Shown piece after piece: positions 4,376-62,517 of a DNA stretch of 64,000 bases. A program made the translations under genes and the position numbers. The notes beneath the pieces are model-generated. The model worked only from the letters and a program-made list of their open reading frames with translations. It was not told the DNA's origin and made no database searches. Within the stretch, counting starts at the first letter, position 1. Every line of letters begins with the position of its first letter. The DNA comes from Sphyrna mokarran (lineage: Eukaryota), in assembly GCA_024679065.1 (NCBI GenBank), contig JAGIQG010000009.1:102486001-102550000 (forward strand), given 5' to 3'.

Positions 4376-7300
4376 TTTTTTTAAAAGCAACACAGTACGG
4401 GAAACAGGCCCTTCGGCCCAACGAGCCCGCGCCGCCGTCATAACTTTATAGTAACAATTCCATTTTCCTGTTCTAATTTTAGGTTATACCTAATATGGAA
4501 GAATCTCAATATAGGGACAATTTGTTTCCCAATCAGCCTAAGAGCGAATTTTTGGGAAGTGGGAGGAAACCGGAGCGCCCGGAGAAAACCCACGCAACCA
4601 CGGGGAGAACGCGCAAACTCCCGCAGACACCGGCCCAATTCCAAGTGTCTGCACAGGTACAGCGATAGTCACTGAGCTGTCATGGTGCCCTTCAGATGGT
4701 CCAGTAAAGCACTCATTTACAACATGAGGTACCAGTCAACCCATGAATCAACATGCAAGAGCTGTCCTCGCACCACCTGCCGAATGCATGCTCCTTGTTG
4801 GTCAAGTTGGACCGAATTACCTGTGGAAAAAAAAAAGCCATAGTTAAACAGTCCTACTATATCCCTCTATCTGCATAACGCTCATGTGGCTGTCCAAGAG
4901 ACCCTTAAACAGCCTTAGCGTGCCTGCTCCCACCACCTTACTCGGCAGTGCATTCCACACCCCCACTACCCTTTGTGTGAAAAACGGCCCTCTAATATTC
5001 GTCTTATACATAGCCCCCCTCACCCTAAGGCCATGACCCCTCGTCCTATCCATTTCTGAAGGTGGAAAAAGTTTACCTCCATTTACTCTATCTATACCCC
5101 TTATAATCTTATCCACCTCTATGAGATCCCCTCTAAGCTGACGTCTTTCAAGGGAAAACAACCCCAGTCTATCTAATCGTTCCTCATAAGACAGTCCTTC
5201 CATACCAGGCAGCATCCTGGTAAACTTCCTCTGCACTCTCTTCAAGGACTCCACATCCTTCCGATAGTACGGCGACCAGAACTGGGCGCAGTATTCCAAG
5301 TGAGGCCTAACCAATGTTCTATACAACTGCAACATCAAACTCCTACTCTTGTATTCTATACCCTTTTCTATGAAAGCTAACATACTATACGCTTTCTTTA
5401 TCACCTTCTCCACCTGTAAAGACACCTTCAGAGACTTGTGAACCTGCACCCCCAAGTCTCTCTGCGTCTCTATACTCCGAATAGTTTTACCTTTTATTCT
5501 ATAACTCTCTTCTACATTTTTCCAGCCAAAATGCATCACCTCGCATTTATCCGGATTAAATTCCATTTGCCATCTATCTGCCCAGTCTACCAACCTGTCT
5601 ATGTCCTGTTGTATTGCCTGGCACTGCTCTTCTGTACCCGCCAATCCAAGCATCTTAGTGTCATCAGCAAATTTGCTGATCTCACCACCTACCCCAACTT
5701 CCAAGTCGTTTATGTAGACCACAAATAGAAGAGGACCTAGTCCTGAGCCTTGTGGCACTCCACTAGTGACAGGCTTCCAGCCGGAAAAAGAGCCTTCCAC
5801 TACTACCCTCTGTCTCCTCCTCCCGAGCCAGTTTTCGACCCATCTACATACTTGGCCCTGTATCCCATGAGCCTTCACCTTCTCTATCAGTCTACCATGA
5901 GGAACCTTGTCAAACACCTTACTGAAATCCATGTAGACGACATCAACAGCATGTCCTTCATCAACTGTTTTTGTCACTTCTTCAAAAAATTCCACTAGAT
6001 TTGTTAGACAAGACTCCCCCTTGACGAAGCCATGCTGCATATCCCTGATCAGATCGCAGCGCTCCAGATGCTCATACATCCTGTCCCTAAGGATCCTCTC
6101 CATTAGCTTGCCTATAACTGAAGTCAAGCTCACCGGCCTATAGTTCCCTGGGTGATCCCTCTGACCTTTTTTAAACAACGGTACTACGTTTGCTATCCTC
6201 CAGTCCTCTGGGACCTCACCTGTGTCCAAGGAAGAGACAAAGATGTGCGTCAGAGGCCCAGCTAGGTCTTCCCTCAACTCCCTTAGCAGCCTGGGGTAAA
6301 TGCCATCAGGCCCCGGAGCTTTATATGTCTTTAAGCCGCCTAACAGCCCCAACACCTCTTTCCTCGTAATCTTTATTTCCCTCAACCGATCCTCAACTTT
6401 GTCAAAATCAGCAACAGACATCTGGCCAGTCTCCTGCGTGAATACCGACGCAAAGTATTCATTCAGGATCTCCCCCATTCCCTCATGCTCTAAGCATAGA
6501 TCCCCTCCACTGTCCCTAAGAGGTCCAATCTTGCCTCTAACCATCCTTTTGCTCCTTACATAGGTGTAAAATGCCTTTGGATTTTCCTTAATCCTACCTG
6601 CCAGAGCCACCTCGTGGCCCCTTTTTGCCTTTCTAATACCCCTTTAAAGATCCCGTCTACACTCTCTATAAGCTTCCAGCGCTGTCTCAGTCCCCAGTTG
6701 CCTAGATCTAATGTAAGCCTCTCGCTTCTTCCTGATCAAGTCCTCAATATCCCTGGTACGCCACGGTTCTCTAATCCTACCTTTCCCATCCTTCCTCCTT
6801 GCCGGCACGTATCTTTCCTGCAGAGAGTTTAGTTTTCCCTTGAAAGACTCCCACATGTACCTCGTCGACCTGCCTCGAAAAGCTTATCCCAGTCGGTATC
6901 TTTAAGATCTTGCCTAATCTGGCTGTATCTAGCCCTCCCCCAGTTAAATACCTTCCCTTTTGGGCAGGTCTCGTCCCTTTCCATTAATATCCTAAAGTAG
7001 ACAGAGTTGTGATCACTATTTGACACATGCTCTCCTACCTCGACGTCAACCACCTGCCCTGGCTCATTCCCCAGAACCAAATCCAGTATAGCCCCCTCTC
7101 TAGTCGGGCTATCCACATACTGGTCCAAGGACCCTTCCAAAACACAATGTACAAATTCCTCCCCGTCCACTCCTACAGCTCTGGGCACTCTCCAATCTAC
7201 TCCAGGGAAATTGAAATCTCCCACTACTACTACCCTATTTTTCCTACATTTATCTAAAATGCCCCTGCATATCCCTTCTTCCACGGCCCGCGGGCTGTTG

Positions 7301-8600: not shown

Positions 8601-9861
8601 GTGGTTTTGTGAAGGGTAGGTCGTGCCTTACTAACCTCATTGAGTTTTTTGAAAAAGTGACCAAAGAGGTGGATGGGGGTAAGGCGGTTGATGTGGTATA
8701 TATGGACTTTAGTAAGGCGTTTGATAAGGTGGCCCATGGAAGACTTCTGCAGAAAATGCAGATGTATGGGATAGAGGGTGATTTAGCTAATTGGATTAGG
8801 AATTGGCTAGCAGATAGAAGACAGAGGGTGGTGGTTGATGGAGATATTCATCGTGGAGTTCGGTGACAAGTGGTGTACCTCAGGGGTCTGTTTTGGGGCC
8901 CCTGCTGTTTGTAATTTTTATAAATGATCTGGATGAGGGTATTGAAGGATGGATTAGTAAATTTGCAGATGACACTAAAGTCGGTGGAGTGGTAGATAGT
9001 GAAGAGGGGTGTTATAGTTTGCAGAGAGACTTGGACAAGTTGCAGAGCTGGGCCGAGAGGTGGCAAATGGAGTTTAATGTGGAAAAGTGTGAGGTAATGC
9101 ACTTTGGCAGGAATAATAAATGTGTAGAGTATAGGGCTAATGGTAGGATTCTTAATAGTGTTGATGAACAGAGGGATCTTGGTGTGTATGTGCATAGATC
9201 CCTGAAAGTAGGCAGTCAAGTCGAGAAGGTTGTTAAGAAGGCATATGGAGTCTTAGCTTTTATTGGTAGGGGGATTGAATTTCGGAGCCGCAACGTCATG
9301 TTGCAACTGTACAAAACTCTAGTGCGGCCGCACTTGGAGTATTGTGTGCAGTTCTGGTCCCCACATTATAAGAAAGATGTGGAGGCATTGGAGAGGGTAC
9401 AGAGGAGGTTTACCAGGATGTTGCCTGGTATGGAGGGCAGGTCTTATGAAGAGAGGCTGAGGGATTTGAGGTTGTTTTCGTTAGAAAGGAGGCGGCTAAG
9501 AGGGGACCTAATCGAAACATATAAGATGATTAGAGGTTTAGATAGGGTGGACAGTGATAGCCTTTTTCCTAGGATGGAGAAAGCTAGCACGAGGGGACAC
9601 AGCTTTAAATTAAGGGGTGATAGTTATAGGACGGATATCAGAGGTATGTTCTTTACCCAAAGGGTGGTTAGGGAGTGGAATGCCCTGCCTGCAGCAGTTG
9701 TAGATGCGCCAAGTTTGGTGGCGTTTAAGAGGTTTGTTGATAAGTATATGGAAGAGAAGGGAATGGTTTAGTTTGGAGGGTCATTGCTTTTTATATTGGT
9801 CGGCGCAACATCGAAGGCCGAAGGGCCTGTTCTGTGCTGTAATGTTCTATGTTCTATGTTC
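8601..9861 (+). mobile_element. CR1 LINE, 5'-truncated, young
   Basis: RT ORFs 8609-8866 and 8863-9771 (one frameshift); (TGTTCTA)n tail; near-identical to 39310-41182. Confidence 0.95.
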
Positions 9862-15040: not shown

Positions 15041-15912
15041 AGCTAACAACCATCAGATCTCAGCAAAATAAAGACTGAATTAAATTTTATTTTTGCTTTT
15101 TTCTGTTGATATCCTTGTCTAATTTACATGGGTGCTAGTGTCATTGATTCACAAGTTTTTCATTAACCTTCAGGACAAGTGTGTGAGAATTCTTTTTTTA
15201 AAATCCTTCATTTTCAAATATATATAAACTTGCTGCTGGTTAATTGAAATTTAGTCACTCACAGAGTTTAAGAAAATGCACACATCCATTCACAAATATA
15301 GATCATAGACACAACAAAAGAAAACTCCTGATTTCCAGTTTTACTGTTTGCCAGGAGTTAACTGTCCAAAGCTGTAATTCTTCAAGCAGTGCAACAATTT
15401 GTTTCCCCAATCAGATGCAGATTTACTGCGCAACTTCAAATATTCTTTCCTCTCTCCGTGCAGTCGCTTGGCTCTTATCTATGGATACGTCATAAACGGA
15501 AATTGAAACTGTGCTTTTGACATTATTGAAAACCATATCATAAACATATAGGCTAACTGGCCCTGAGCTTCAAGTATATATTCATCAATAACCTGAAGTT
15601 TGTGAATGACCTGCTCACTACTTTTGCCTTGGTTCCTTTAGAACTGTTTTCTGAACTTTTGTAATAATGTCTATATTCCATCCGTTAAATATCCTGAGCA
15701 AATTCTGTGATATAATTTCTTAATCATTAAGTTAAAATTGACAAAGCTGTTAATGCATATTCCCTGGCTTTTCATAGTGATATCTGGTCGTTTCTGTATG
15801 GGGTATTGGTTTGATAAAACTGCGAGATGGCACAGTGGTTAGGACTGCTGCTTCACAGTTCCAGGGACTTGGGTTTGATTCCCTGCTTGGGTCACTGTCT
15901 GTGGACTTTCTA

Positions 15913-17041
15913 CAGGGAGTAAGTGGAGTGATCAGCAAGTTTGCAGACGACACAAAGATGACTGGACTTGCGGATAGTAAGGAGCATTGTCAGGCGATGC
16001 AGCAGGACATAGATAGGCTGGTAGCTTGGGCAGACAGATGGCAGATGGAATTCAATCCTGATAAATGTGAGGTGATGCATTTCGGGAGAAAGAATGTAGG
16101 GGGGAGGTATATGATAAAGGGTAGACCTATTAAGAGTATAGAAACGCAGAGGGACCTGGGGGTGCAGGTGAACAAGTCTCTGAAGGTGGCAGAGCAGGTG
16201 GAGAAAGTTGTGAAGAAAGCATATGGTATGCTAGCCTTTATAGGAAGGGGTATAGAGTACAAGAGCTGGCCTTTAATGTTGCAGTTGTATAAAACGTTGG
16301 TTAGACCTCATTTGGAATACTGCGTCCAGCTCTGGTCGCCTTACTACCGGAAGGACGTGGAGACTATGCAGAGAGTGCAGAGGAGGTTTACCAGGATGCT
16401 GCCTGGTATGGAAGGTCTGAGTTATGAGGAGAGGTTAGGCAAATTGGGACTGTTTTCCTTAGAAAGACGTAGACTTAGAGGAGATCTAATAGAGGTGTAC
16501 AAAATGCACAAAATAGGGATCATGAGCCTTGGGAGTCCCTGGGAAGTGTGTAAATAGATGATGATATTGATGTACTGTTTTTTATCCTACAGGTGCTTTG
16601 GTCCACCTTGTTGTCTAACAAGGGCATACACGCGATGGGTCGTGAGAGGGCTGCTCTTGGATTTTTTCGAGAGTATCTAGTGCTTCACGTCGTTAGTGTA
16701 CGCTTGACCTGGACCATTTGATGGGCAACACAACAGCTCAGTGACTATTGCTGTGCTGTGCAGATACATGGATTTGGGCCTGTGTCTATAGGAATTTGCG
16801 CATTCTCCCTGTGCTTGCGTGGGTTTTCTCCATGCTCCGGTTTCCTCCCACATCCCAAGGATGTGCTCTTAGGCTAATTGGCAAAACAAATTCTCCCTAA
16901 ATTGTCTCAAATTTGGTTTTTAATTCATAGATCTATAAACATAGACAGGGATCGCGGGTAGAGGTGGGAACATCGGGGTGGTGGCACGGGCTCGTTGGGC
17001 CGAAGGGCGTGTTTCCCGTGCTGTTTTATTCTTTGTTCTTT
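15913..17041 (+). mobile_element. CR1 LINE (subfamily 2) with V-SINE-derived 3' UTR, preceded by an HE1 SINE head (15827-15912)
   Basis: RT C-terminal ORF to 16557; UTR homologous to 61885-62369; TTCTTTG tail. Confidence 0.9.
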
Positions 17042-34801: not shown

Positions 34802-35193
34802 AGTAAGAAGTCTCACAATGTCAGATTAAAGCCCAACAAGTTTATTTGATATTACAAACTTTTGGAGTTCTGCCTCTTCATCAGGTGAGTGAAGAGTTGG
34901 GTTCATCAACAGGACATTTATGAGCAAAGACACAATTAGAAGATAATTGTTGGAACGTGAGCCCTTTCAGGTAATGAAAGCTTTACAGGGTCAGACATTG
35001 TGAGTGGAGTGATGGATAATCACAGACTAAAGAGGTATGAATTATTTCAAGCAAGGACAGTTAATTATGAAATCTACCTCTCCATTCACCTGATGAAGGA
35101 GCGATGCTCTGAATAATCCTGTTGGATTTTAATCTGGTGTTGTGCGACTTCTTATTGTGTCCACCCTAGTCCAACGGCAGCATCACCACATCA
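34802..35193. mobile_element. Penelope-like element ends in inverted arrangement, with decayed hammerhead cores
   Basis: Left arm is the reverse complement of the Penelope 3' region seen at 49620-50058; right arm TCACCTGATGAAGGAGC..GGTGTTGTG..CAACGGCAGCATCACCACATC. Confidence 0.7.
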
Positions 35194-36559: not shown

Positions 36560-36748
36560 ATGCACCTAACCAGCATGTCTTCTGCACTATGCGACATTCC
36601 ATAGTAACATTAAGGGGAAGTGATGGCCCAGTGGCATTATTGCTAGACTATTCATCCAGAAACTCAACTAATGTTCTGGGGCCATCGCTTCCCCTTAATG
36701 TTACTATGGAATGTCACATAGTGCAGAATATGCGCTGGTTAGGTGCAT
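36560..36748. repeat. 70-bp inverted duplication with ~49-bp spacer
   Basis: 36560-36629 is the reverse complement of 36679-36748 with about 6 mismatches. Confidence 0.9.
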
Positions 36749-38345: not shown

Positions 38346-39113
38346 TTCAACGCGGATAAATGTGTGGTGGTCCATTTTGGCAGGACCAATGGGATGAAGG
38401 AGTATAATATCAAGGGTAGGAGTCTTGGCAGTGTTGAGAAGCAGAAGGATCTTGGGTCTGGGTCCATAGGATTCTTAAAACGGCCCTGCAAGTAGAGGAT
38501 ATGGTCAAGAAGGCATATGGTGTACTAGCCTTCATTAATAGAGGGATTGAGTTTAGGAGTCGGGAGGTAATGCTGCAACTTTATAAGACCCTTGTCCGAC
38601 CCCATTTGGAGTACTATGTACAGTTCTGGTTGCCTCACTATAGGAAGGATGTGGAAGCTATTGAGAGGGTGCAGAGGAGATTTACAAGGATGTTGCCCGG
38701 ATTGGGGGGCATGCCTTATGAAGGTAGGTTGAGAGAGCTAGGCCTTTTCTCCCTGGAGAGACGAAGGTTGAGAGGTGACCTGATAGAGGTTTATAAGATG
38801 TTGAGAGGAATAGATAGAGTGGATTTTCGGACGCTATTACCCAGGGCTGAAATGGATGCTACGAGAGGACATAGGTTTAAGTACAGAGGAGATGTTAGAG
38901 GTAGGTTTTTCGCTCAGAGGGTGGTGAGTGAATGGAATCGGTTGCCATCAGTGGTGGTAGAGGCAAACTCACTGGGGTCTTTCAAGAGACTTCTGGATGA
39001 GTACATTTAATGGGATTGGGAGTTACAGATAGTTCTATGGCCTGGTAGGTACTGATATGATCGGCACAACTTGTGGGCCGAAGGGCCCGTTTGTGCTGTA
39101 GTGTTCTATGTTC
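38346..39113 (+). mobile_element. CR1 LINE 3' fragment
   Basis: ORF 38501-39010 with CR1 C-terminal motifs; TGTTCTA tail. Confidence 0.9.
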
Positions 39114-39309
39114 TGTCTCAAGCCTGTCTTTTCATTAAGTTAAATTATGGCTGATCTGTATCTTAACCAGTCCTGGTTTCATATCTCCTAAAACCCTTAC
39201 CAATTTTTTTTTAAATCTCAAATATATCTCACTGCGATTGGTGCTGAGATCACAATTGATCCCAATTTACACAAGTGAGAAATTCAAGATAGCATATCAA
39301 CTCTTTTGG

Positions 39310-41182
39310 TGATAGGAAGGAGGTAAAAAGTGAATTGAGGAGAGCTAAGAGGGGACACGAGAAGATGTTGGCTGATAGGATTAAGGAGAATCCTACAGCT
39401 TTCTTTCGATATGTTAAGAATAGAAGATTGGTTAGGGCAAGATTAGGGCCAGTCATAGATAGCAGTGGGAAGTTGTGCGTGGAGCCTGAAGAGATTGGCG
39501 CGGCACTGAATAAATATTTCTCTTCGGTATTCACGCAGAGTGCTGGAAATGTAGCTGTGGAGAGCACTGAGGTACAGGGTTGCAAATTGGGGAGTATTGT
39601 AGTAGATAGGGAGGCTGTGTTAGAAATTCTCGAGGGTTTGAAGTTGGATAAGTCCCCTGGGCCGGACGGGATTTACCCTAGGATTCTCTGGGAGGCAAGA
39701 GAGGAGATTGCAGAGCCTCTGGCTCTGATCTTCAGGTCCTCGTTGGTTACGGGTGTGGTTCCGGAGGACTGGAGGATAGCGAATGTGATCCCATTGTTTA
39801 AGAAGGGGAAGAGAGACCTTCCAGGGAATTATAGGCCAGTGATTCTTACTTCTGTTGTGGGCAAGGTATTGGAGAGAATTATTAGGGATAGGATTTATAG
39901 TTATTTAGAGAGAAATGAATTGATTGGGGATAGTCAGCATGGTTTCGTGAAGGGTAGGTCATGCCTTACTAACCTCATTGAGTTTTTTGAGAAAGTGACC
40001 AGAGAGGTGGATGGGGGTAAGGCGGTTGATGTATTATATATGGACTTTAGTAAGGCGTTTGATAAGGTGGCCCATGGAAGACTTCTACAGAAAATGCAGA
40101 TGTGTGGAATAGAGGGTGATTTAGCAAATTGGATTAGGAATTGGCTGGCAGAGAGAAGACAGAGGGTGGTGGTTGATGGGAGATATTCATCGTGGAGTTC
40201 GGTGACGAGTGGTGTGCCTCAGGGGTCTGTTTTGGTGCCCCTGCTGTTTGTAATTTTTATAAATGATCTGGATGAGGGTATTGAAGGATGGATTAGTAAA
40301 TTTGCGGATGACACCAAAGTCGGAGGAGTGGTAGATAGTGAAGAGGGGTGTTCTAGTTTGCAGAGAGACTTGGACAAGTTGCAGAGCTGGTCCGAGAGGT
40401 GGCAAATGGAGTTTAATGTGGAAAAGTGTGAGGTAATGCACTTTGGCAGGAACAATAAATGTGTATAGTATAGGGCTAATGGTAGGGCTCTTAATAGTGT
40501 TGAGGAACAGAAGGATCTTGGTGTATGTGTCAATAGATCCCTAAAAGTAGGCAGTCAAGTGGATAAAGTTGTTAAGAAGGCATATGGAGTCTTAGCTTTT
40601 ATTGGTAGGGGATTGAATTTAGGAGCCGCAGCATCATGTTGCAGCTGTACAAAACTCTAGTGCGGCCGCACTTGGAGTATTGTGTGCAGTTCTGGTCGCC
40701 ACATTATAAGAAAGATGTTGAGGCATTGGAGAGGGTACAGAGGAGGTTTACTAGGATGTTGCCTGGTATGGAGGGCAGGTCCTATGAAGAGAGGTTGAAG
40801 GATTTGAGGTTGTTTTCGTTAGAAAGGAGGCGGCTAGGGGGGATCTTATTGAAGCATATAAGATAATTAGAGGTTTGGATAGGGTGGACAGTGATAGCCT
40901 TTTTCCTAGGATGGAGAAAGCTAGCACGAGGAGACACAACTTTAAATTAAGGGGTATGAGTTATAGGACGGATATCAGAGGTAGGTTCTGTACTCAAAGA
41001 GTGATTAGGGAGTGGAATGCCCTGCCTGCAGCTGTTGTAGATGCGCCAAGTTTGGTGGCGTTTAAGAGGTTATTTGATAAGTATATGGATGAGAAGGGAA
41101 TGGTTTAGTTAGGAGGGGCATTGCTTTTTATTTTGGTCGGCACAACATCGAAGGCCGAAGGGCCTGTTCTGTGCTGTATTGT
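39310..41182 (+). mobile_element. CR1 LINE, 5'-truncated
   Basis: RT ORF 39335-40468 and continuation; (TGTTCTA)n tail. Confidence 0.95.
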
Positions 41183-42932: not shown

Positions 42933-43639
42933 TTCCACTCTTCTTGTTAGACATCTTACTAGTACAGTAACATTTATCTACACACACACACACACACAAT
43001 TATTAATCATCCGCACAATCAATACTAAATTATCTTACGGAATACTAAAGTTCAAGTCCAATACTAGACCTTGACTTAACTTTTGCGTGACTGGCAAGTA
43101 CTCCCAGTCAGATATTGACCTTTATCTGCAAGTTATTTTCCGTAGTCTTCTGTGAGTCTGGTCTTTTGGTCTGATACCCTAGCTCTGGTCTTCCTTCCTT
43201 CTTTGGTGTGGTGGCTGTCCTCGTAAGGCTCAATCAAGTGCTGCCACACCAACCTCTGGGTGTGTACCCAACAGGTACTCCCTGAAGGAGGAACGAGACT
43301 CCGAAAGCTTATGCTGCCAAATAAACTTGGTGGACATTAACCCTGATATTGCAAGACTTTTTACTGTATGTACCCAACAGCTGTGCCTGTCAGTGCTGGA
43401 GACACATAGATCACATACCTCCCTCACAAATAATGCTATCTATGTGTCTGGTAAACAACTCATTTTGACCAGAAAGTGTCCTTTGTCCTTGATATGGCCT
43501 ATATCCTGTCTATTCCAACGTCAGCAGCTGTAGCCTGTTCACCTCTGCCCAATTTCTTCTGAGGCTGTCTGTTTCAGTGCTTGTCCAATTATCCCAGCAT
43601 GCTCTTGCAAATTGTCATCTTAGGGGTCCATTTGGCCAC

Positions 43640-44126: not shown

Positions 44127-45141
44127 TGCAGATGCATGTAAGTAGAAGCTAGATAACTACAAGAGGAAGAATGAAATAAGCTTTTTTTTATTCATTAGTT
44201 GTAAGTACGCTTACATTAACACTGCAATGAAGTTACTGTGAAAATCCTCTGGTGCCTGTTCAGGTACACTGAGGGAAAATTTAGCATGGCCAATACATGT
44301 AACCAGCATGTCTTTCAGACTGAGAGGAAATCGAATAGATAGGGGAGAACGTGTCCCAAGACGGGAATCGAATCAGATTCCCTGTGCTCTGAGGCAACGG
44401 TAGTAACCTCTGTGTCACCTAGTGTAGATCCTAGAACAACACTGCGGAAAACCACTCCAAATTCAACACCAGTTGAATTAAATTCTAGGTTTTTCACATT
44501 GCCATGGGATAAGTGGAATGTGTGATATGGGAACACCAGTCTGACAGTTTGTGATTCTGTGAACAGATATGGGAGTTTAACCCGACCTGTGTAATGTCAT
44601 CTTCGGTCAGATGCTGTCAACTGGGAAGAGTTAGCCAAGTTCCATTGGCCCCTATTGACATCACACACTTCAATAAAGAAAATAATTTTTGTGAAGATAC
44701 GCATAAATATTATACACAGATGACAGGTTGGGTTGGTGATTACAACTGAATAGAAATCTAGGAACAAACATTCAGAGGTAAAGAGTTTCAGATTTGATTC
44801 AATGAATGGGGAATGGCTCCAATAGAAGGATATGGACCCAGTAAGGGCTGAAGTTTTTTTTTAAATTTAGTACATCAAGATTGGTTTGGAGGTCCAAAGG
44901 CCCTGTTCCTGTGCTGTACTTTTCTTTGCTCTTTTGACATTGAACTATAGATGAGAATCCTCTGATGTTCATCTATCCTGGGAGACAGTGGCTGTACCCA
45001 GGGTATATATCATTACTGTATCGAAGATCACATCGTATTTTTGCATTATTGCACATAGCCCACATTCTAATATCCATATAAGGAAACACTAGCTCCAAAA
45101 AGTCGAGAAAGTACTCCCTTAGCTCTTTGCATGGTTTAACA

Positions 45142-45318
45142 CCATAAGTAGACTCACAGCACCAGGTTAAATTCAAACATTTTGGTAATTGAGCTTTCAG
45201 AGTGCTGCCCCTTCATCAGGTGAGATGAAGGAGCAGTGCTCCTAAAACTGGTGCTACCAAATAAACGGACTTTAACCTGGCGTTGTGAGGCTACTTACTG
45301 TGTTTACTCCACATCATG
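45142..45318. mobile_element. Penelope-derived hairpin element with hammerhead core
   Basis: Inverted arms; minus-strand CTGATGA-AGGGGCAGCACTCT-GAAAGCTC at 45191-45219, stem I damaged. Confidence 0.7.
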
Positions 45319-46821
45319 GTTTAACACCTCGTGAGTATTTAATACCTTATAGTTTTTGTTAAGTTTATTGCCAATTTGGTCACAGGAAATCCTAGCACGC
45401 TTAAAAAAATCTTTGGCCACAAACCCGTTTTGCCTGATTGAAAATCTTTCAGCATCTTAAAAGTTAAATCTCTGCAGGTCACTCAGCTACAGTATTAAAA
45501 AAAATGGGCCAAAGTCAGGCTGGAGTTAGACCACAGATCAGCCATGATCTGATTGAATGGCAGAACAGGCTCGAGGGACCAAATGGCCTATTCTTGATCC
45601 TAAATAAAATCACTGTGCAATGGGCACTGCTCAGTCAGAGAAATCACCACTTTAGTGTTTAACTGGGGTAAAGGAACTACCCAGAAGGCAAAGGGAATAT
45701 GTAACACACCAAGGCAACACTTATTTGGTGAAAGAAAAGCTATTCAATGCTAAAAGAACCTGCAAGTGGGGAGAGTCACAGACCAATGTAACAACACAAG
45801 GCGGCCCTCAGTTTATTCCTATCTTTGCTGAGTTAACTGATCTCAGCTGTGGCAGCAGTTAGAAGCTACAACTGACCTCTGTCTTGAAGATTAGAGTATC
45901 CCGTGCCACCCTCCCCCAATCCACAGCCCACCCCTCCCTCCACACTGCCCCACAGAAGGATTACTTACACCCCTTTTAGTAATAATTGTATGATATCCCA
46001 GCTTAGAAATAACAGGCTTTCCAGTCACTATGATTTGGTCTGGCTGAATAACTTGACGGCAATCTTTCACGTCAAAGTCATTCAATGTTTAAGTTAAACA
46101 ATCTTGAATGATTAATTAATCCCTACTAAATCTTCAAAAAGTAATCTGGAATTCCTAAAATTCTTTTAAGTACGGACGGCTCATGTAAGTTGTATTATAT
46201 TGGATTGCTTATTTCATAATCCTTTAACATTTAATTTCATCGGTAGTAAACTATTTTTTCTATATTTTTGACCCAGTTGCTTTGGTCACTGTTCGTGTGG
46301 AGGACAGGAAATCTGCTCAGCTGTGGTTAACAAGCATCCGAGCTGCTTTTGTTCTTGTTTATCTTAAATATTTCTCTCGCTGTATTTCTGAAATGGAAAT
46401 AATTATTAATGTTTATTGAGTATTGTTACTGGAAGTGACTACAGTGCATCGCATGCACACGCACACACACAAAACGTATGCACAAATTCATACATGTCAT
46501 ACTAACAAGGTCTGAGTCACAGACAACAAGACAACAAAAACTTGTAGACAAACTGGTAAGAATCCATGTAAGAAAGTGAATCCCAGTCTTGCTAAAACTA
46601 ACACCAGATATTTGATATTAGACAGTGAATTTCCCTAATGAATGTGTGTGTGTGTCTAGGAAATATTTCATCGGAAATAGGAAATCAATCGTAGCCAATC
46701 ACAATCGCCTCTTTTTCTGTTTAAAGAGAGGAATGCCCCTCATGGAACCTCATTTCCCTCAGAAGGTGACATCACATGGGATCTGTGGTGAGCTGTTAAA
46801 ATGGATACAGAATTGTCTTGG

Positions 46822-47397: not shown

Positions 47398-48589
47398 TTG
47401 GCCACAGACAACAGAGAGTAGCGGTGGAAGGGTGTTTTCCAGAATTGAGATCTGTGATCAGTGATGTCCCGCAGGGATCTGTGCTGGGACTCCTTTTGTT
47501 TGCAATATAATGTTTATACATGATTTGGAGGAAAATGTAGGTAGTATGATCAGTAAGTTTGCGGATGACACAAAGATTGGGGGAGTTGTGAATGGTGAAG
47601 AGGATTGCCAGAGGATTCAGGATATAAATAGGCTGAAGATCTGGATGGAGAAATGGCTGAATGGTCTGTTCCTGTTACTGTGTTGTTCTTTGTTTTTTGT
47701 AGGGAGCTCAAAACTTGGTGTTACGGAGGTCCTGTACAACTGAAGATATCTTTACTTCTGGACTCCAATCCTCTTCTAATTTTCCTTCTTAATTGCTGGT
47801 TGCAGTTGTTTCTTCCACATCGTTGGATTATGGGAGGAAACCAAAGCTCCTGGACTAAATGCACAGAGATAGAGATAGAATAGAATGTATGGAGGAACCG
47901 AGGCCAAAACTGGACCTGGGTTTCTGTGAGGCAGCAGTGCCAACCACTTATACCTCCATACCAGCCCTCACTCCCTGATAGAGAGCCTCAGTCACTCAGT
48001 ATAACAATAGGTTCACTATCTCATCTTTTCCCTCACTCACTGTGAACCAGCAACTGCTGTCAATATTAACCCTCAAAGGGAAGCTGGATAAATAATTAAA
48101 GAGGTACAGACGATTCGAAGAAGAAAAAAGATAACTTCAGGAGCTGATTTGGCATTGGATGGTACAAGTACTTTTAGAAGCAGCTGGAATGGGGAGTCCT
48201 TTATTTCTCGGTGAATGAATTTTAAAAAATGGCCAAAAGCATCTCTTCCTCAAAGCCATCTCTCTGATGACAATGATACAAATGCACCCTCTGCTGGCGT
48301 CTGGATGCTAGTGCACCAATGGATGAGACAGCATCAGGGATCCATGATGTGGAACTGCGACCATGACACCACACAACCCTGCCGCAGCAATGTCCGCATG
48401 ACATGCCAGGTCATCGACACAGATGCCATTATCACACATGAGAAAACCATCCGCCAGGTATATGCTACATACGCATGCCAACAATGGCTACCTGATACAC
48501 GATGTAGAGATGCCGGCGTTGGACTGGGGTAAACTCAGTAAAGTTTTACAACACCAATTTTAAATCCAACCAATTTATTTGATAGTAAA

Positions 48590-48627
48590 TCCACGAGCTT
48601 TCGACTTTACAGCCTTCGTCAGGCAAA
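48590..48627 (-). ncRNA. Minimal type I hammerhead ribozyme (mirror copy)
   Basis: Reverse complement UUUGC-CUGACGA-AGGCUGUAAAGUC-GAAAGCUC-GUGGA. Confidence 0.75.
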
Positions 48628-48635
48628 AACACTGC

Positions 48636-48675
48636 ATTTGCCTGACGAAGGCTGTAAAGTCGAAAGCTCGCGGAT
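48636..48675 (+). ncRNA. Minimal type I hammerhead ribozyme
   Basis: Stem I AUUUGC/GCGGAU; core CUGACGA; stem II GGCU-GUAA-AGUC; GAAA; palindromic AGCU stem III; predicted cleavage after C48669. Confidence 0.8.
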
Positions 48676-48999
48676 TTACTATCAAATAAATTGGTTGGAT
48701 TTAAAATTGGTGTTGTAAAACTTTACTGAGTTTACCTGATACACTGCAGGAAAGGATGTCCCAACACATGGTACATTGACGAGACCATGCAGACTTTACG
48801 ACAATGGATGAATGGACACTGCTCAACAATTACCAGGCAGGAATGTTCCCTTCCTGTCAGGAAACACTTCAGGAGTCGAGAGTATACTGCCTCCGATCTT
48901 CGGGTATGCGTTTTCCAAGGCGGTCTTCAACAACACAGAATTGCCAAGCAGAAACTGATAGCGAAGTTCCAAACATATGAGGAAGGACAGAGCACTCAT

Positions 49000-50058
49000 C
49001 TAGTGCTTCCCCGGAGCGGAGAAGCTACGGCACCTTCTCCGGAGCCTTCAACACATCATTGATGAAGACGAATATCTCGACTAGGCCATGCTCACGCCCC
49101 CTCTTCTTGCCTTCATACAACTGCACAACCCCAAACAGACCATTGTCTGCAACAAACTACCCAGCCTTCAGGATAGTGACCACAACACCACACAACCCTG
49201 CCACAGCAACTTCTGCAAGAAGTGCCAGATCATCGACACGGATGCCATTATCTCATGTGAGAACACCTTCCATCAGGTACACAGTACATGCTCTTGCAAA
49301 TCAGCCAACGTGTCTACCTAATGCACTGCAAAAAAGGATGTCCCAAGGCATGGTACATTGGAGAGACCATGCAGACGCTACAAGAGTGGATAAACGATCA
49401 CCGCTCGATAATCACCAGGAAAGACAGTTCTCTTCCTGTTGGGGAACACTTCAGCGATCAAGGGCATTCAGTCGCTGACCTTCCGATAAGCGTTTTCCAA
49501 CGCAGCCTTCATGACGCACAACAGCGCAGAGTTGCTGAGCAGAGATTGATAGCCAAGATCCGCACACATGAGGACGGCCTCAAACAGGGATCTTGAGCTC
49601 ATGTTACACTATCTATCACCCCCATAATGACTTGCCTGGGTTTGCAAAATCTCACTAACTGTCCTGGCTGGAGACAATACATATCTGTTCAGCCTGTGCT
49701 GGGCCCTGTATCCACTTGCATTGTCTTTAAGACTTGATTATCTGTAAAGACACACATTCCAACCACTATCTTGTAAATTGAGTTTGTGTCTTTATATGCC
49801 CTGTTTGTGAATAGAATTCAATAAAGTCTGACAACACCAATTTTAAATACAACCGATTTATTTGATAGCAAATCGGTTGCATTTAAAATTGGTGTTATCA
49901 TACTTTATTGAGTTTACCCCAGTCGAACGCCAGCATCTATACATTGTGAATAGAATTCACACTTACCTGATGAAGGGGCAGCACTCCAAAGCTGGTGGAT
50001 TTTGCTACCCAATAAACCTGTTGTGAGCCTCCTTACTATGTTTACCTTCGTCCAACAC
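49000..50058 (+). mobile_element. Penelope-like element 3' part (GIY-YIG remnant + pLTR), copy 2
   Basis: VYLMHCKKGCPKAWYIGETMQTL..H..LPVGEHFS..R..AEQRLIAK..GL (ORF 49288-49596); decayed hammerhead at ~49965-49995; typical 3' end. Confidence 0.85.
49821..49943. mobile_element. Short Penelope-derived hairpin insert
   Basis: Inverted arms without the ribozyme; 16-bp TSD TTGTGAATAGAATTCA (49805-49820, 49944-49959). Confidence 0.85.
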
Positions 50059-50274
50059 AGTAAGAAGTCTGACAACACCAGGTTTAAGTCCATCCGATTT
50101 ATTTGATAGTAAACTCAGAAGCTTTCGAGGCTATCCTCTGATGAAGCTTCTCTGATGAAAAGATATCCTCAAGAGCTTCTGAGTTTACTATCAAATAAAT
50201 CGGATGGACTTAAACCTGGTGTTGTCAGACTTCTTACTGTGTTCACCCCAGTCCAACACCGGCATTTCTACATC
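50054..50274. mobile_element. Penelope-derived hairpin element
   Basis: ~70-bp inverted arms (50054-50122 / ~50174-50243) around a broken hammerhead core; tail CACCCCAGTCCAACACCGGCATTTCTACATC. Confidence 0.85.
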
Positions 50275-50546: not shown

Positions 50547-50710
50547 ATACTTACCTGGCAGGGGTGAAACCGTGATCATGAAGGCGGTTCGCCCAGGACG
50601 AGGCTATCCCATTGCACTCCGGGTGTGCTGACGCCTGCGATGTCCCCAAATGCGGGATACTCGACTGCAAAATTTGTGGTAGTGGGGGACTGCGTTCGCG
50701 CTCTCCCCTG
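50547..50710 (+). ncRNA. RNU1: U1 spliceosomal snRNA gene (variant, full length, 164 nt)
   Basis: ATACTTACCTG 5' end, U1A loop ATTGCACTCC, Sm site AATTTGTGG, SL4 ending CCCCTG; DSE, PSE and 3' box present; no poly-A. Confidence 0.97.
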
Positions 50711-60413: not shown

Positions 60414-62517
60414 TGTTAAGGGAAATTTAGGAATAGATTTAGAGGGAATATTATTGTTAGTTTAGGTGCCTGTATTAACAATTTATATCTCTAGGTACCT
60501 GAATAGCAATTTATTTTGGTAGGGATACATAAGTACGTAATAAATGTGTGTGATTTTATTGCTTTACGATCACAGAAGGCATTCATTTAAGTTCCATGTT
60601 GTTAACAGAAGTTCAGAATATTAAAATGACACAAAATGGATACCAGCTGGTTTAGCCACATTCCTGATCACAATAAGCTGGCTTCATCACACGTTTATGT
60701 ATAATAGACCATAGATATTGGTGGCTGCTACCAGTCTATGGTCCAAGGTCTCAAATGGAAGCCAGACCACAAGATTAGGGACGGCATTCATAGAAAATAA
60801 GGAAGGCCACTGGACAAGGAGTATTGTAACTCAAAGACTCCAGATGGGGGAAAGGGAGATAATAATAATGAGTTGTGTCAGTGAGACCACAAACTGATCA
60901 TGCATAAGCCCACCTTATGTAATGCCTTTCTCATTGAATATGCGACTAATGTGAATAAGCTGTACTCAATGTTATTAAATAAGGTACAGCCGTGATGGGC
61001 TGTGTCGATGTTTGAAACATGGACTTGGAAGTTGGGGTAGGTGGTGAGATCAGCAAATTTGCTGATGACACCAAGATGCTTGGATTGGCGGGTACAGAAG
61101 AGCAGTGCCAGGCAATACAACAGGACATAGATAGGTTGGTAGACTGGGCAGATAGATGGCAAATGGAATTTAATCCGGATAAATGCGAGGTGATGCATTT
61201 TGGCCGGAAAAATGTAGAAGAGAGTTATAGGATAAAAGGTAAAACTAATACGAGCATAGAGACGCAGAGAGACTTGGGGGTGCAGGTTCACAAGTCTCTG
61301 AAGGTGTCCTCACAGGTGGAGAAGGTGATAAAGAAGGCGTATAGTATGTTAGCTTTCATAGAAAAGGGTATAGAATACAAGAGTAGGAGTTTGATGTTGC
61401 AATTGTATAGAACGTTGGTTAGGCCTCACTTGGAATACTGCGTCCAGTTCTGGTCGCCGTACTATCGGAAGGATGTGGAGTCCTTGGAGAGAGTGCAGAG
61501 GAGGTTTACCAGGATGCTGCCTGGTATGGAAGGACTGTCCTATGAGGAACGATTAGATAGACTGGGGTTGTTTTCCCTTGAAAGACGTCGGCTTAGAGGG
61601 GATCTCATAGAGGTGTATAAGATTATAAGGGGTATAGATAGAGTAAATGGAGGTAAACTTTTTCCGCCTTTAGAAATGGATAGGACGAGGGGTCATGGCC
61701 ATAGGGTGAGGGGGGCTATGTATAGGACGAATATTAGAGGGCAGTTTTTCACACAAAGGGTAGTGGGGGTGTGGAATGCCTGCCGAGTAAGGTGGTGGGA
61801 GCAGGCACGCTGGGGCTGTTTAAGGGTCTCTTGGACAGCCACATGAGCGGTATGCAGATAGAGGGATATATTAGGACTGTTTAACTACGGCTTTTTTCCA
61901 CAGGTAATTCGGTCCATACTTGACCAACATTGAGCATGCATTCGGCAGGTGGTGCGGGTACAGCTCTTGGATGTTGATTCATGGGTTGCCTGGTACCTCA
62001 TGTCGTAAATGAGTGCTTTATGTGGACCATCTGAAGGGCACCATGACAGCTCAGAGACTATCGATGTGGCTGTGCAGACACTTGGAATTGGGCCGGTGTC
62101 TGCGGGAGTTTGCGCGTTCTCCCCGTGGTTGCGTGGGTTTTCTCCGGGCACTCCGGTTTCCTCCCACAACCCAAAAATTCGCTCTTAGGCTGATTGGGAA
62201 ACAAATTGTCCCTATAGTGAGAATTTTCCATATTAGGAATAATATATATATTATTATATAGGAATAATATAATAAGATAATGGATTTGCTACTATATAGT
62301 TATGACGGCGGCGCGGGCTCGTTGGGCCGAAGGGCCTGATTCCCGTGCTGTGTTGCTCTTAAAAAAAAATGTATGAGAATGGATGTTTTTCCTTTATTTG
62401 TCAGAGAGACACTGGGCTTTAACAGAAGCCATCCACCTGCCGGTGAAAATAAACTGTTTGATGCAAGGACCAACCCTGAGCATTGAGTAATTTCTTTGAG
62501 ATTCTCTTCCATTAACA
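60414..62517 (+). repeat. 3' LTR interrupted by a CR1 (61022-62369)
   Basis: LTR homology stops at ..GATGTTTGAAACATG and resumes at TGTATGAGAATGGAT.. to CCATTAACA. Confidence 0.85.
61022..62369 (+). mobile_element. Young 5'-truncated CR1 with V-SINE-derived 3' UTR
   Basis: Near-identical to the reverse of 4376-5707; RT C-terminal ORF; A-tail. Confidence 0.95.

Follow-up and report, generated by a model that had tools for sequence, protein, structure and literature searches.

The stretch of DNA analysed here, which we call the window, is 64 kb long and carries at 48501..48736 an insert (E1) of two Penelope pLTR copies placed head to head. The insert is flanked by a direct repeat and lies within an older, decayed Penelope coding region. 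The features of the locus are as follows.

48359..49020, plus strand: target, a decayed Penelope-type GIY-YIG endonuclease coding region in opposite orientation to the tail-bearing arm
48489..48500, plus strand: left copy of the target-site duplication, an exact direct repeat, with an uninterrupted paralogous site at 49315
48501..48527, minus strand: 27-nt Penelope "tail", unmirrored; 48501 is the fixed 3′ end of the family
48528..48627, minus strand: pLTR arm that bears the tail and is in element sense on this strand; identity to other pLTR copies of the window 76-88%
48590..48627, minus strand: minimal type I hammerhead motif, C3 at 48622, H17 at 48595, predicted cut after 48595 (descriptor scan and folding)
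48628..48636, plus strand: spacer of 9 nt, belonging to the tail-less arm as parent sequence; contigs align from exactly 48628 rightwards
48636..48675, plus strand: minimal type I hammerhead motif, C3 at 48642, predicted cut after C48669 (descriptor scan)
48637..48736, plus strand: pLTR arm without tail, in element sense on this strand; in three further pairs (E2, E3 and E4, see below) the arm lacking the tail ends at this point to within a few bases
48733..48744, plus strand: duplication copy on the right side, of which the first 4 nt double as the end of the arm (microhomology)

The inverted arms (48528-48627 and 48637-48736) are complementary at 99 of 100 positions and enclose a spacer of 9 nt, which confirms the near-perfect 100-bp palindrome of the original prediction. 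Their sole mismatch, 48593/48671, lies in a CpG context inside ribozyme stem I; later deamination or two different RNA templates may account for it. The folding energy of the E1 hairpin is -172.5 kcal/mol (z = -25.9), and none of 200 shuffled sequences was equally stable. The arms are inverted as claimed, but the element as a whole is asymmetric because the 27 nt at 48501-48527 form an unpaired tail which has no mirror in the opposite arm. A similar correction applies to the duplication, described before as 12 bp long. The direct repeat 48489-48500 = 48733-48744 is indeed without mismatch; the bases TACC at 48733-48736, however, are the last 4 nt of the right arm as well as the first 4 nt of the right duplication copy. 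The duplication therefore measures 8-12 bp and the insert ends at 48732-48736. An assembly artefact is unlikely; although no read spans the element, the perfect duplication, the asymmetry of the tail and the arm mismatch speak against it. We also discarded a microRNA precursor, as all Rfam matches were below threshold and of the kind which any long hairpin yields.

A second relic, located at 49178-49577, shares 75-79% identity with the target flanks and is uninterrupted at the corresponding place (paralogous site at 49315, 74.5% identity over 263 columns). Thus, the duplication is target sequence. The translation of this second relic reaches a score of 0.95 against GIY-YIG clusters, and PF01541 is found on 41% of the members of the first cluster; Pfam returned no family for any of the three pieces of the target relic itself. 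Copies of the pLTR related to E1 adjoin the GIY-YIG relic. The region 48300-50274 is a nest of Penelope pieces with two endonuclease relics, one older pLTR and three later stump insertions (E1, E2 and E3), which agrees with reports that older copies tend to be targeted. In the older pLTR we note a TATA-like motif at 49791-49797 and, adjoining the hammerhead core, a CACT motif at 49960-49967; once E2 is removed the two are separated by about 28 bases of target sequence. This arrangement may point to a start site directly ahead of the ribozyme.

Besides E1 the window harbours four further, older head-to-head pLTR pairs.

34802..35192, plus strand: E5, an old pair with about 170 nt between the arms
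45130..45328, plus strand: E4, an old pair at 45138-45314 with arms 76% alike and a perfect 14-bp duplication, its centre adjoining the hammerhead core
49805..49959, plus strand: E2, pair at 49815-49943, arms 91% alike, 29-nt tail, perfect 16-bp duplication, without hammerhead core, inside the older pLTR
50054..50274, plus strand: E3, arms 93% alike, 31-nt tail, complex centre

The centres of all five pairs are different. No flanking duplication was found for E3, and for E5 the search for a duplication covered one arm. The tail-less arms of E1 to E4, compared base by base, all end within a few bases of one point (4/4) and enter the target via a short match. The tails measure 27 nt in E1 (31 nt with the four shared bases), 29 nt in E2, 31 nt in E3 and 10 nt in E4, the last of which looks deleted. 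We suggest that 48501 is likely the outer start of reverse transcription and that the end of the tail-less arm on the side of 48736 is likely the inner one.

Elsewhere in the window we observed a decayed single pLTR piece (43260-43380, plus strand) which lies between 15-nt direct repeats, 93% alike, and ends near the inner fixed site. A 70-nt inverted repeat at 36560-36748 (91% complementary, 49 nt apart) is not matched by the pLTR queries. A full-length copy of the U1 snRNA is present at 50547-50710 on the plus strand (158.5 bits against a gathering score of 69.5). LINE-like reverse-transcriptase frames, probably CR1-like, are located at 4844-6643, 8839-9771, 15781-16557, 38438-40468 and 61016-61846 and are stop-free over up to 599 aa. 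The wealth of such frames and the U1 copy mark the window as animal DNA; the source may be a cartilaginous fish.

The two hammerhead motifs of E1 are the only two descriptor matches in the 64-kb window, while random sequences gave a mean of 0.01 matches (100 sequences). On both strands an additional unpaired A sits between core positions 9 and 10.1; a strict descriptor without this base misses both motifs and the relaxed descriptor detects them. Stem II consists of four pairs, one of them G-U. Stem I has six pairs with two G-U on the plus strand and five pairs with three G-U on the minus strand. With the Rfam model Hammerhead_1 a 73-base stretch scored 13 bits (E = 1.1), below the gathering score of 34, and the match lacks most of the stem III loop of the model; scans of wider stretches gave no match to Hammerhead_1. 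The Infernal scan that had been proposed as a check thus yields a sub-threshold match only. The original prediction of an intact hammerhead on each strand holds for the core, which is present on both; the stems are weak, the extra A had gone unmentioned and cleavage is predicted only. The assignment to the minimal type I hammerheads of the dimer-requiring kind is borne out, since CUGANGA, GAAA, UH, the unpaired base 9/10.1, G10.1-C11.1 and the palindromic 15.2-16.2, the features listed in PMC4209133, are all present in the E1 motifs.

How does E1 compare with known systems? Penelope insertions with an inverted truncated pLTR have been described with a 31-bp tail on one copy and duplications of 8-10 bp (PMC3846280), and elsewhere the tail is given as 30-40 bp (PMC8557442). 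E1 is like the insertions of both reports in its head-to-head pLTRs, its single tail and its duplication of about 8-12 bp, and also in that it went into an older Penelope in opposite orientation. It differs in that it has no ORF and only about 110-130 nt per arm and in that its tail is 27 nt instead of 30-40 nt long. All marks of a Penelope insertion which we tested are found in E1, namely a pLTR with a hammerhead motif, an inverted 5′-truncated copy, a tail at one end and a duplication. The Penelope origin and the non-coding nature of E1, both already proposed, are supported. The insertion is likely young as well, though the identity of the arms may overstate youth if they convert each other.

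The minimal hammerheads of metazoan Penelope elements have the same core, the unpaired base 9/10.1, G10.1-C11.1, the palindromic 15.2-16.2 and no real stem III (PMC4209133). In Schistosoma, hammerheads occur as opposite-strand pairs 100-700 bp apart and have a stem II of 7-8 pairs (PMC4209133), whereas the cores of E1 are only 19 nt apart and stem II has four pairs. The Poseidon element of the green anole resembles E1 in having two fixed ends which bound the tail, an outer junction without homology to the target and a hammerhead kept uncut in the copy (PMC11167929). The Poseidon ORF, however, starts in stem II, where the equivalent triplet of E1 is ACG. Non-LTR retrozymes (bioRxiv 10.64898/2026.07.22.740005) are, as E1, non-coding, derived from pLTRs and equipped with a type I hammerhead. 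They are built of head-to-tail tandem units, whereas E1 is a single head-to-head pair and never has two sense ribozymes per RNA. We therefore rejected E1 as a retrozyme. The build of E1 comes as no surprise: opposite-strand hammerheads (PMC4209133) and the inverted pLTR with tail and duplication (PMC3846280, PMC8557442) are already published, and siRNA has been reported from Penelope inverted repeats (PMC3681739).

For a view beyond the window, contigs of 4 of 24 listed public sequencing runs (X1, X2, X4 and X15) were aligned to 48251-49000 at 90% likeness. Over the unique left flank X1 has a depth of 14.9 and no differences across 138 bases; this run likely represents the same species, and the window itself may derive from it. 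In X1, 26,307 contigs aligned, 3,608 of them at >= 99%, and most of the summed depth lies on the pLTR end; the summed contig depth was not taken as a copy number. The Penelope family of E1 is very abundant and E1 is one of very many stumps. Contigs which leave exactly at 48501 into unrelated flanks (agreement 0.37-0.40) number 446 in X1, 50 in X15, 95 in X2 and 243 in X4. The consensus just outside 48501 is common to three runs, which suggests that some copies of the family continue past this point into further element sequence. From X15, only guessed to be RNA, the pieces listed differ from the E1 locus and the unique flank is uncovered; its joint 48437-48733 likely comes from other endonuclease copies. 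Among the 15 joints listed none is the empty-site joint of the E1 locus. The tail pattern has no match in the metagenome contigs and none in the viral contigs, and these collections yielded no parent ORF with RT and GIY-YIG endonuclease joined to the pLTR.

With a palindromic reference, any joint that leads from the left arm into the right one stems from another copy with another centre. The arm-to-arm joints listed for X1 are 14 and 5 from two listings; one X15 row, which is target sequence, and one X4 row were left out. All 19 are distinct, hence at least 19 centres. Fourteen of the 19 rest on 1-7 contigs each at a depth of 21-245. Among the contigs listed, none bridges the own centre of E1 (48627|48628). 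Position 48628 is exactly where the fit starts in six of the listed contigs, drawn from three runs; ahead of it they carry 0-7 letters which disagree with the reference. Two other X1 joints likewise resume there. It follows that the spacer belongs, as parent sequence, to the right arm and that the true junction lies at 48627|48628. To judge from these sequences, 48628 may be the natural 5′ end of the RNA.

These joints bear directly on the original prediction, in which the whole 236-bp palindrome is a non-autonomous element that is copied as a unit and contains a ribozyme-or-hairpin switch. The clean duplication, the intact motifs on both strands and the 99% identity of the arms fit such an element. 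A few other centres are found at high depth too, two joints of other copies reaching 136 and 245 as compared with 14.9 for the unique flank, and thus some centres may recur or have been amplified. A palindrome mobile as a unit, such as a MITE, has inverted repeats at both termini, and its copies share one centre and one length. In contrast, all centres differ among the joints listed and the window pairs (19/19 in X1 and 5/5 in the window). E1 itself carries the unpaired 27-nt tail at one end, so its ends are not symmetric, and we rejected the MITE for this reason. As the flanks at the tail end are unrelated and the centres differ, the palindrome is likely rebuilt at each insertion.

The switch, too, does not hold up. 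In a head-to-head pair the antisense copy is transcribed ahead of the ribozyme whichever strand is read. When the growing transcript is folded, C3 is paired upstream with P >= 0.99 already three bases after its emergence, and in the full transcript of both strands stem II has a folding probability of only about 1e-20: the antisense copy captures the emerging ribozyme. In isolated arms stem II reaches P = 0.01-0.10 and other folds are favoured. Cleavage by the minimal type I class requires two ribozymes (PMC4209133, PMC6765202), and a single E1 transcript cannot form a double hammerhead alone because each RNA has only one sense ribozyme. For two molecules the double-hammerhead fold (-15.3 and -8.3 kcal/mol) is much less stable than the optimal fold of the pair (-31.5 and -25.7 kcal/mol), in energies which omit tertiary contacts and help by proteins. 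Mobility of the palindrome as a unit, with a ribozyme predicted never to fold in read-through RNA, is in our view very improbable. The folding does support the other half of the claim, a long hairpin upon read-through. The models predict that read-through RNA of E1 from either side is an inert long hairpin without self-cleavage which at most supplies the double-stranded RNA pathway. A transcript started at the centre would avoid the hairpin, which is at most conceivable by analogy with the fly Penelope, whose promoter is internal to the pLTR (PMC2377424).

We suggest instead that E1 is probably a Penelope stump insertion in which two copies of the ribozyme end were laid down head to head in one event, by two primings from the cut strands, and that it was likely dead on arrival. 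The model borrows from the enzyme of another species, the green anole, which cuts and extends both strands, is predicted to act as a dimer and mostly uses unprocessed RNA (PMC11167929). It starts at two adjacent internal RNA sites, one at either end of the tail, and can work without ribozyme cleavage (PMC11167929). The insertion could proceed in these steps. The Penelope protein would cut both strands of the target 8-12 bp apart. Reverse transcription would then be initiated internally in the RNA, at two nearby positions separated by about 27-31 nt, as the anole enzyme suggests. The top strand would prime at the outer site without homology and give the tail-bearing arm; the bottom strand would prime at the inner site via the 4-nt match and give the tail-less arm. 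Both cDNAs would extend to the 5′ end of the RNA, here an uncleaved RNA, and their ends would be joined. The product is seen in the DNA as duplication, tail, arm, junction, arm and duplication. Read-through RNA from either side would finally give the long hairpin and no self-cleavage. The portions of PMC11167929 considered here do not discuss palindromes. The two-priming reading of Penelope palindromes was not found in a literature search that took in few subscription papers and had the supplements of PMC11167929 and PMC4209133 outside its reach.

Alternatively, the inverted arm could be made anew at insertion by self-priming, that is by fold-back of one strand, as put forward for rotifer Penelopes. 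Palindromes at inverted junctions have been read in this way, perhaps on an antisense template (PMC3846280), and several X1 joints are nearly symmetric (e.g. 48588 to 48676 and 48589 to 48675). Yet the tail-less arm of E1 has 9 nt, in parent orientation, which are missing from the tail-bearing arm, and neither strand yields the other by simple self-copying. As far as this one junction tells, a snap-back of the tail-primed strand would reverse the orientation of the spacer, and had the other strand snapped back, the tail would be unaccounted for. Moreover, the tail-less arm ends at a fixed site which matches the target, as expected of a primed end. We consider self-priming improbable. The orientation of the spacer, which is that of the tail-less arm, favours two cDNAs over a simple snap-back.

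Another question is which RNA serves as the source. It could be a short non-autonomous element of a single arm with a promoter of its own, the palindrome still being rebuilt at each insertion. The abundance of the family in X1 (see above) would be in line with such a source, as would the internal promoter of the fly Penelope (PMC2377424), the rotifer pLTRs which act in trans (PMC3846280) and the non-autonomous pLTR derivatives described as retrozymes (bioRxiv 10.64898/2026.07.22.740005). The anole enzyme, however, depends on RNA reaching to nt 172 of the ORF, with copying starting at 111-118 (PMC11167929), and by analogy the stumps would be without the binding region. The consensus shared by three runs outside 48501 likewise suggests continuation into element sequence. 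A single-arm source therefore appears distinctly improbable to us.

Within the two-priming reading the centres might tell where the cDNAs ended. Among the 38 arm ends of the 19 X1 joints listed, 20 lie 0-10 nt after the predicted cut and 11 further on; three lie within 10 nt before the cut and four further back. In two joints the letters between the two sides complete the arm precisely up to the first base past the cut and agree with the common variant of the family at 48673. This clustering may be an artefact, because alignments stop near 48589/48675 where relatives differ from E1, and because copies with a divergent stem II fail the 90% alignment and the joints are a selection. The ends of E1 itself lie 33 and 42 nt upstream of the cut site, and its templates were therefore uncleaved. 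Tentatively, the stump centres might record the Penelope cycle, with cDNAs that reach the 5′ end of the RNA, which would be the transcription start (as in E1, 42 nt before the cut) or, more often, the cut site of the hammerhead. We offer this as a possibility which we would sooner doubt than assert. A clustering of Penelope centres after the cut site was not found reported in our literature search.

In summary, E1 as a single locus matters little and its value is that of a sample of the mechanism. If the centres do record the cycle, they would be direct evidence that a minimal Penelope hammerhead cleaves in vivo and that the cleaved RNA is copied.
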